From: a bacterium
GTDB taxonomy: Bacteria > Verrucomicrobiota > Verrucomicrobiia > Chthoniobacterales > UBA6821
Length of the DNA stretch: 64,000 nucleotides
Assembly: GCA_021849805.1 (NCBI GenBank)
Contig: JAJZSL010000003.1
Location: 103,229 to 167,228 of the forward strand
Direction of reading: 5' to 3'
The number at the start of each line of letters is the position of its first letter. The first letter of the stretch is position 1. Below the pieces are notes generated by a model that was not told the DNA's origin, did not search any database, and worked only from the letters and a program-made list of their open reading frames with translations. Below, piece by piece: positions 63,372-63,937 of the stretch. Made by a program: the position numbers and the translations under genes.

Positions 63372-63471
63372 GAGAAGAAGAGCTAGAAAGTTAGCAACAA
63401 GGTTGAGTCATTCATGAAGTATGAGAGGGTAAAAATAAGAAGTTTCGGCTTAAAGAACTTAATGAAAACTT

Positions 63472-63830
63472 CCCTCTTGTCCAAAATAAAATAGGAGGAC
63501 CTTTCCTCTTACGTCCTTGATGAAGCACTTTCAGAAATCGTCATTCCCGCGAACGCAGAAATCCAGAAGACTTTCTGGATAAGTACTAGAAGCTCTTTTA
63601 GAAAAATTCTCAAAAAGGTTTTTCTTAAAAAATCCGCATATTTTCTCGCTTTGAGTTTCTCAACTTTTTTCAAAAAAAGGAAATATTTTGCTCTTGTTCT
63701 TATAAAATCATTAACACTACAGCAATGTTCTCCTGGATTCCTGCGTTCTCAGGAATGACGCCAATAGAGATGGGAGGAAGCTTCTAGAGGAGGCCCCTTC
63801 TATTGATCATTTTTATTTTGGAGAGTAGCG
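63472..63830 (+). mobile_element. MITE-like repeat, copy 5 (longest form, ~359 bp) flanked by a perfect 9-bp direct repeat
   Basis: Left end ccctcttgtccaaaataaaat; right end atttttattttggagagtagcg. Flanking TGAAAACTT at 63463-63471 and 63831-63839. It contains both internal modules, with hairpins at 63543-63562 and 63737-63756. Confidence 0.8.
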
Positions 63831-63937
63831 TGAAAACTTAAGAAGTTGCTCAACGCTATTTCTGAAATTAAGAGCACTTATCGTTTCAACGATTCCCTAT
63901 TTTCTCTCAGGCAGGAATCACCATTCCTTCTCTTGGA

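Follow-up and report, generated by a model that had tools for sequence, protein, structure and literature searches.

A family of short, dispersed intergenic repeats is present in the 64-kb stretch of contig JAJZSL010000003.1 analyzed here (referred to as the window, and numbered from its first letter), which comes from an uncultured Verrucomicrobiota genome. We propose, with a probability of about 0.7, that these repeats are non-autonomous transposons bounded by terminal inverted repeats (TIRs), i.e., miniature inverted-repeat transposable elements (MITEs). An earlier note on the same stretch had called the family MITE-like, and the small size, lack of coding capacity, TIRs, 9-bp flanking repeats, and dispersed intergenic copies described below all agree with that interpretation.

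Including 8.2 kb to the left of the window and 9.4 kb to the right (17.6 kb of flanks), our search covered 81.6 kb of the contig, and counts refer to this length unless the window is named. Coordinates outside the window carry the label L002 (sequence past the window end) or L018 (left of the window), both on the same contig; L007 denotes a relative at 87% protein identity, and L015 a 99.2%-identical variant strain from another sample. Using repeat finding, BLASTN, and nhmmer, we found six copies or fragments of the family, and sensitive BLASTN together with nhmmer profiles of the arms recovered five right arms and four left arms. The repeat observation itself is confirmed, as all five intervals listed previously contain shared repeat modules. 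However, the copies had been assigned to a single family, and this holds for copies 1, 2, 3, and 5 only: the interval taken for an inverted MITE fragment (61691-61751, “copy 4”) instead consists of a second repeat alone, here referred to as “repeat B” and described further below. The copies of the MITE family are as follows.

63472 to 63830, plus strand: copy 5, intact long element, 359 bp (BLASTN, nhmmer, repeat finding)
57946 to 58110, plus strand: copy 3, intact short element, 165 bp, between exbB and exbD (BLASTN, nhmmer, arm alignment)
29658 to 29813, plus strand: copy 1, truncated, left arm absent (BLASTN, nhmmer)
About 37455 to 37676, plus strand: copy 2, mosaic (BLASTN, nhmmer)
L002 8193 to 7990: left-half copy outside the window, just past its end
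L018 6135 to 6027: short degenerate right-arm copy outside the window, to its left

All of these copies are intergenic, and five of the six lie on one strand, a bias that is not significant (two-sided binomial, ~0.2). Both ends are present only in copies 3 and 5. Within the window, the 15-mer end motif TTTTATTTTGGAGAG occurs six times with no more than two mismatches, compared with an expectation of 0.44, and every match is an element end, with right ends accounting for the four on the plus strand and left ends for the two on the minus strand. The ends of copy 5 and the direct repeats (unstranded) that flank the two intact copies are located as follows.

63472 to 63492, plus strand: left TIR of copy 5, CCCTCTTGTCCAAAATAAAAT (end-motif scan, arm alignment)
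63808 to 63830, minus strand: right TIR of copy 5, reverse complement CGCTACTCTCCAAAATAAAAATG (end-motif scan, arm alignment)
63463 to 63471: left 9-bp direct repeat of copy 5, TGAAAACTT, putative target-site duplication
63831 to 63839: right 9-bp direct repeat of copy 5, TGAAAACTT, identical at 9/9 positions
57937 to 57945: left direct repeat of copy 3, ATGTTATGT
58111 to 58119: right direct repeat of copy 3, ATGTTGAGT, identical at 7/9 positions

The ends are inverted repeats, as had been suggested, with the left end matching the reverse-complemented right end at 17 of 23 positions in the long copy and at 18 of 23 in copy 3. The consensus is an imperfect TIR of ~21 bp, C-N-CT-NN-T-N-TCCAAAATAAAA(A)T, in which the terminal ~21 nt read CCCTCTT(T/G)TCCAAAATAAAA(A)T on the left and CRCTACTCTCCAAAATAAAAATG on the right, and copies 1, 2, 3, and 5 share 96-100% identity in the right-end 23-mer. 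We set the element boundaries where homology between copies stops, independently of the direct repeats, and the latter therefore sit at predetermined positions. The perfect 9-mer previously noticed around the longest copy is indeed found on both sides of it. At copy 3, the two flanks resemble each other at seven of nine positions, again as noted before; the right one begins at 58111, and the element therefore ends at 58110. Its reported start (57946) stands, whereas its reported end (58109) falls one base short of the ...GGAGAGTAGYG terminus seen in the other copies. Across all window positions, flanks at the same spacing match by chance with a frequency of 3e-5 for 9/9 and ~3e-3 for at least 7/9, and it is very unlikely that the two direct repeats arose jointly by chance. 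The duplicated 9-mers of the two sites differ in sequence, and both are AT-rich. Since only two copies have both ends, the 9-bp duplication is deduced from these two sites.

Sequence conservation is also concentrated at the termini. The right terminal 23 nt are 98% identical among the four copies, compared with 76% for the adjacent 47 nt, and on the left side the terminus is 86% identical, compared with 73% for adjacent sequence. The outermost 21-23 nt are the best-conserved part of the element, exceeding even the internal hairpin described below. Such a gradient would be expected if multiplication were limited to copies that have intact ends.

According to the arm alignment, the left and right arms have just two things in common, namely the terminal ~21 nt and a hairpin module located ~67 nt inward. 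The ~45-nt subterminal sequence differs between the left and right sides and is conserved among copies within each side; to judge from the sequence, these distinct subterminal arms represent the layout of an element derived from an insertion sequence (IS). Copy 5 consists of the left arm, a repetitive extragenic palindrome (REP) hairpin, an AT-rich center of ~170 bp, an inverted REP hairpin, and the right arm, and it folds as a long foldback (DNA minimum free energy of -51.8 kcal/mol, z = -4.4). Copy 3, with a foldback z of -2.8, has both arms, and its center has shrunk to a single hybrid hairpin with a tag on either side (58013-58040; CGTC-ATTCCCGC-ATTT-GGGGAAAT-AACG). Copy 1 starts at the REP hairpin, continues with 55 nt of the center, and enters the right arm at a remnant of the second hairpin. 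In copy 2, a left arm with a degenerate, unrecognizable terminus (37455-37496) is followed by the 5' half of repeat B (37498-37568), and the remainder (37570-37676) consists of a REP hairpin and the right arm. The shorter copies had been interpreted as internal-deletion derivatives of the long one, and this is true of copy 3 and roughly so of copy 1; it fails for copies 2 and 4, since copy 2 combines MITE and repeat B sequence and copy 4 comprises nothing but repeat B. Stop codons occur in all frames of the element, and its only open reading frame (ORF) above 40 aa (54 aa) has no relative in a search of 5.8 billion proteins. Rfam searches at both gathering and E-value thresholds returned no family for the repeats.

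The inner hairpin modules belong to a known type, the CGTC-1 class of REPs, which is defined by a CGTC tag (often TGTC or CCTC), an 8-bp stem starting with AT, a 4-nt loop, and a CCA tail, and which has been equated with the Neisseria dRS3 repeat (PMC3733652). The two hairpins of copy 5 are located as follows.

63539 to 63565, plus strand: left CGTC-type REP hairpin of copy 5, CGTC-ATTCCCGC-GAAC-GCAGAAAT-CCA, the module with the gonococcal dRS3 match given below
63734 to 63760, minus strand: right CGTC-type REP hairpin of copy 5, CGTC-ATTCCTGA-GAAC-GCAGGAAT-CCA on the minus strand

Every copy of the MITE family carries a CGTC-tagged REP hairpin, and the tag, stem, loop, and tail of the CGTC-1 class are all found in both hairpins of copy 5 as well as in those of copy 1 (CCTC-ATTCCCGT-GGAG-GCGGGAAT-CCA) and copy 2 (TGTC-ATTCCTGC-GGAT-GCAGGAAT-CCA). 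The dRS3 pattern, ATTCCC-N8-GGGAAT (PMC1797815), is fitted exactly by copy 1. When the whole element was compared with a plasmid collection by BLASTN, the 34-nt REP module alone was matched, to Neisseria: the N. gonorrhoeae dRS3 sequence CGTCATTCCCGCGCAGGCGGGAATCCAGAA is 88% identical over 34 nt, including the flanking AAAT and CCAGAA. This match is short, with an E-value of 0.09 against a 7.3-Gb database, and therefore supports the dRS3 call only together with the structural features above. The gonococcal records in question are about 2.17 Mb, i.e., chromosome-sized, and had been entered as plasmids; at the gonococcal locus, a second inverted hairpin lies about 60 nt away. Outside the family, the hairpin was met only once in the 81.6 kb, as a chance match inside a gene, and there are neither arrays nor solo hairpins in this sequence. 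No such hairpin was found in 69 kb from relatives. Breakpoints in the short and mosaic copies (copies 1, 2, and 3, and copy 7 outside the window) lie at or beside the hairpins.

REP hairpins of the CGTC/dRS3 type are widespread in bacteria. A 2013 survey reported CGTC repeats in five phyla, Verrucomicrobiota not being among them, and CGTC REPs are reported to lack a dedicated transposase, with their dispersal stated as an open question (PMC3733652). It is possible, although we put this forward with some doubt, that REP hairpins travel here as internal cargo of a TIR-bounded element that duplicates 9 bp, in which case the action of an ordinary DDE transposase on a MITE would give the REP superfamily one way of spreading, with the hairpins driving deletions and mosaics; the superfamily would then also be placed in Verrucomicrobiota. 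The occurrence of dRS3-like CGTC hairpins within a transposon-ended unit is in this respect a small lead on the dispersal question (PMC3733652).

The variant strain L015 differs from the window at copy 1, which is the sole strain-level variation seen at any copy. Its copy-1 hairpin is perfect (CGTC-ATTCCCGC-GGAG-GCGGGAAT), whereas that of the window reads CCTC and includes a G-T pair. A 20-bp tandem duplication (TCTCTTTTC[C/G]TCATTCC) distinguishes L015 (about 2750-2780) from the window (29655-29665) at the left edge of the copy.

From the anatomy of the copies we infer transposition and the way in which the family may have formed. A transposase encoded elsewhere in the genome would bind both ends, and the unit would be inserted into AT-rich intergenic DNA through 9-bp staggered cuts, the repair of which would leave the 9-bp direct repeat. 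Judging from the breakpoints, copies would then be degraded through deletions or rearrangements at their internal hairpins (the short form retains both arms and one hybrid hairpin) and further through the loss of one arm; repeat B appears to have become nested in some copies. A copy located inside a transcript would add a strong foldback. Read outward, the ends present a small hairpin followed by TTTTATTTT, and copies may therefore attenuate or terminate read-through transcription. In copy 5, an outward-reading hairpin with a T-run is found at both ends, and copy 2 has, by eye, a good terminator-like hairpin before ATTTTTATTTT; these small end hairpins lack conservation between copies. The copies may have a regulatory role as a side effect, which is compatible with the MITE interpretation.

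The main rival is that the family represents a mosaic repeat similar to REPs or to the Neisseria intergenic mosaic elements (NIMEs), in which the CGTC/dRS3 hairpin is the active part, spread by a hairpin-specific recombinase (HUH/RAYT-like, RAYT being the REP-associated tyrosine transposase, or IS110/Piv-like) or by homologous recombination, and in which the AT-rich ends and 9-bp repeats are incidental. This would account for the presence of the hairpin in every copy and its near absence elsewhere in the 81.6 kb, for the dRS3-spacer-inverted-dRS3 layout that the long copy shares with the Neisseria NIME unit, and for the mosaic nature of the family with its breakpoints at or beside hairpins, and CGTC REPs are after all reported without a dedicated transposase (PMC3733652). 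However, conservation runs ~67 nt past each hairpin to the same end base in all copies, the best-conserved part is the outermost 21-23 nt rather than the hairpin, and a 9-bp direct repeat adjoins both intact copies. Neither HUH nor IS110-type insertion is known to produce a flanking direct repeat. As arrays and solo hairpins are likewise missing, and no RAYT or IS110-like gene is present in the 81.6 kb, we consider this explanation unlikely.

Less probable again, in our view, is that the repeats are functional structured RNAs or cis-regulatory modules (bidirectional terminators, mRNA-stabilizing hairpins, or a small RNA) kept by selection at each locus. Such a role would be in line with the strong foldbacks, with the terminator-like hairpin and T-run facing outward at both ends of copy 5, and with locations downstream of genes or inside the exbB-exbD operon, and REPs and MITEs do act in this manner in other bacteria (PMC3733652). 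Yet there is no Rfam match, the small end hairpins vary between copies, and the copies are truncated in different ways, a loss that a required structure would not tolerate; moreover, exbB and exbD in L007 are 9 bp apart without any such module, and the direct repeats at the ends would be left unexplained. That the copies are an assembly artefact, produced by metagenome assemblers collapsing or joining repeats into chimeras, is hardly credible. The source is indeed a metagenome-assembled genome (MAG), and contigs of five other assemblies (L003, L014, L015, L016, and L017) end inside or exactly at copy 1 or 5, four of the contigs from other assemblies doing so inside copy 1 or at its right end. 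Such breaks are typical of repeats longer than the assembler k-mer, and we take them as evidence for further copies of the family beyond the 81.6 kb. Nevertheless, the same junctions and the 359-bp copy are 100% identical across assemblies made independently, with several samples and pipelines represented (NCBI, ENA, and Logan), copy 5 being 100% identical in three other assemblies, and the 99.2%-identical variant strain has copy 1 at the same site.

Several observations weigh against the MITE interpretation itself. The inverted repeats are imperfect (17-18 of 23 positions) and AT-rich, intact copies number only two, and one of the two direct repeats is imperfect. Gene tables covering nearly all of the window plus the 17.6-kb flanks contain neither a transposase domain nor an autonomous element with the same ends, consistent with the earlier statement that the window holds no transposase. 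Under insertion, the empty alleles would be expected to read ...cttaaagaacttaaTGAAAACTTaagaagttgctc... and ...tttttcgttATGTT(A/G)(T/A)GTaaaagcttgcc...; no empty site was found, as all other assemblies of this organism (99-100% identical) carry the copies, while its nearest relatives, found via the SSF transporter, are at most 87% identical at the protein level, share synteny on one side only, and have intergenic DNA that cannot be aligned. The total count of the MITE family is known for the 81.6 kb only. Finally, dRS3-like hairpins elsewhere have been tied to recombination rather than to cut-and-paste transposition (PMC1797815).

We searched genome, metagenome, and viral contig collections for the exact end 21-mer CATTTTTATTTTGGAGAGTAG, and found two chance matches only. 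One is in a Paraclostridium MAG that has just 22 nt in common with the element, and the other in a JGI contig, in unrelated coding sequence where similarity stops at about 28 nt. In the 69 kb available from relatives whose proteins are 82-87% identical, there is no arm of the MITE family. The lack of arms in these relatives and of exact end 21-mers elsewhere fits a recent expansion within one lineage.

The exbB-exbD intergenic region in L007 was considered as a clean empty site for copy 3 and rejected, the intergenic DNA not being alignable. The spacing between the two genes is 9 bp in L007 and 507 bp here, and the element makes up only 165 bp of this difference. Besides the MITE, the gap holds about 340 bp of non-coding DNA (57882-57945 and 58111-58387), which has no match elsewhere in the window and may represent older, decayed insertions.

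As to the IS family, it had been noted that a 9-bp duplication does not permit an assignment, and we agree: several families are compatible with it. A derivative of the IS903 group (IS5 family) was rejected, as the ends start with C(C/G/A)CT rather than GGCTTTGTTG..., and match GGCTTTGTTGCACAAA, the IS903-group end of the 9-bp MITE MITEAba12, at only about 9 of 16 positions (by eye, Table 2 of PMC6382973). Also rejected were CRISPR, integron attC sites, remnants of group II introns or retrons, and a type I toxin, as there is no regular spacing, conserved ORF, reverse transcriptase gene, or matching motif.

Bacterial MITEs with 9-bp duplications are on record, namely MITEAba12 of Acinetobacter, which is mobilized by ISAba12 (PMC6382973). 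Like the family described here, MITEAba12 is small, non-coding, and AT-rich, has imperfect TIRs, produces 9-bp duplications of AT-rich targets that are kept in some copies only, and is intergenic with possible outward regulatory signals. The Verrucomicrobiota family differs in having an unrelated TIR (C-N-CT..TCCAAAATAAAAAT, compared with GGCTTTGTTGCACAAA), a greater length (165-359 bp, compared with 113 bp), distinct left and right subterminal arms, and internal REP hairpins, and no co-resident IS is known for it. RUP- and ERIC-type MITEs are likewise short intergenic foldback elements with terminal inverted repeats, of full-length and internally deleted sizes, and bear no sequence similarity to the family; the Correia and RUP elements duplicate TA only, compared with 9 bp here. 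The Correia elements (CREE) of Neisseria resemble the family in being short, intergenic TIR foldbacks that occur in full-length and internally deleted sizes and are reported to affect neighboring genes (PMC1797815), but they share no sequence similarity with it, and their inverted repeats are much longer.

The inner module resembles CGTC-1 REP, dRS3, and NIME sequences in its tag, stem, loop, and tail (PMC3733652, PMC1797815), and the two inverted hairpins of the long copy flank a spacer of lower GC content as in a dRS3-RS-dRS3 unit, also within a mosaic family. Unlike in dRS3 and NIME repeats, the hairpins lie inside a larger unit with its own TIRs and 9-bp flanking repeats, within the 81.6 kb they neither form arrays nor occur singly, and their host belongs to the Verrucomicrobiota. 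Similarly, in REP doublets forming hairpins (REPINs), two inverted REP hairpins constitute one larger, intergenically dispersed hairpin unit, but REPINs are GTAG-tagged, are accompanied by a RAYT gene (PMC3733652), and are not known to duplicate their target. An identification as NIME was rejected, because each locus holds at most one hairpin-spacer-hairpin unit and dRS3 arrays separated by RS units are absent; so was REPIN/RAYT, given the CGTC tag, the direct repeats, and the lack of an IS200/IS605-like gene in the 81.6 kb.

Taken as MITEs, these repeats constitute a new family of elements of a well-known kind, and they come from an under-studied phylum for which few MITE families have been described. 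The general picture, in which bacteria commonly carry MITEs, REPs, and mosaics of these, is unchanged, and while the dRS3-like CGTC hairpins within a unit with transposon-style ends add interest, the overall interest is modest. In practical terms, the family accounts for the assembly fragmentation at these loci and for a dubious gene start inside copy 1. The gene concerned is a ribH-like (DMRL-synthase) gene at 29753-30376 of the window, for which the public call starts at an ATG inside copy 1 (207 aa). Initiation outside the copy, at 29867 (about 169 aa), looks more plausible, and copy 1 probably caused the mis-annotated N-terminus. A gap of 17 bp separates the right end of copy 2 from the 3' end of tRNA-Thr(TGT) (37694-37767, minus strand); the element may have inserted beside the tRNA gene, or its position may simply follow from the available intergenic space.

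Repeat B is a separate palindromic unit of ~150 nt that is sometimes nested in MITE copies. The following copies were found.

About 61628 to 61790, minus strand: repeat B copy (earlier “copy 4”), between two convergent genes
37498 to 37568, plus strand: part of repeat B (5' half), nested in copy 2
L002 3740 to 3893, minus strand: repeat B copy
L018 5853 to 6003, minus strand: repeat B copy
L007 11932 to 12107, 8552 to 8671, and 15158 to 15296: repeat B copies in the relative

Four of these belong to the 81.6 kb and the other three to L007, and one of the L007 copies occupies the orthologous position, downstream of the symporter gene. The inverted ends are ~26 nt long (TAGAGCATTTTCAC..GTTSTAGCC and GGCTACAAC..GAAAACRCTCTA), and the unit is predicted to fold into three small hairpins closed by a long stem. 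Convergent genes lie on either side of the four best copies, and TA flanks the ends in three of four copies; repeat B could therefore be either a MITE that duplicates TA or a terminator module of the REP type. At 11600-12310, the L007 sequence downstream of its symporter gene holds a different element of about 710 bp, which is bounded by inverted repeats of ~35 nt (cccgttcctgtgaacgggcaatggcgtcaacttaag and cttaaattgacgccattactcgttctatgaacggg) and includes a repeat B copy and other short inverted repeats.

The window has a G+C content of 42-43% and is densely coding, with a ribosomal protein cluster, secY (the ribosomal-protein/secY block spanning about 39.6-53.5 kb), exbB/exbD, and one tRNA-Thr. 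An exact-protein look-up assigned the same sequence to contig DAIECT010000026.1 (110.6 kb; reverse strand) of MAG GCA_027452665.1, and ENA, Logan, and a second NCBI assembly contain it as well, with 100% identity. For the flanking sodium:solute symporter, the nearest named relative is from a Chthoniobacterales bacterium MAG (87%), with more distant matches in Verrucomicrobiota.

Two further features of the window are unrelated to the repeats. A tandem repeat of 2 x 123 nt (9072-9317, 93% identical) lies in an ORF (7231-9768, 845 aa) that has no Pfam domain and immediately follows a gene for a CesT-type type III secretion chaperone (ORF 6683-7222); its product may be a repeat-containing effector, hinting at a host-associated lifestyle. 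Just upstream of an H+-pyrophosphatase gene, at 1344-1717, a HicA-toxin gene and an upstream gene encoding a 63-aa partner constitute a probable HicAB toxin-antitoxin pair.

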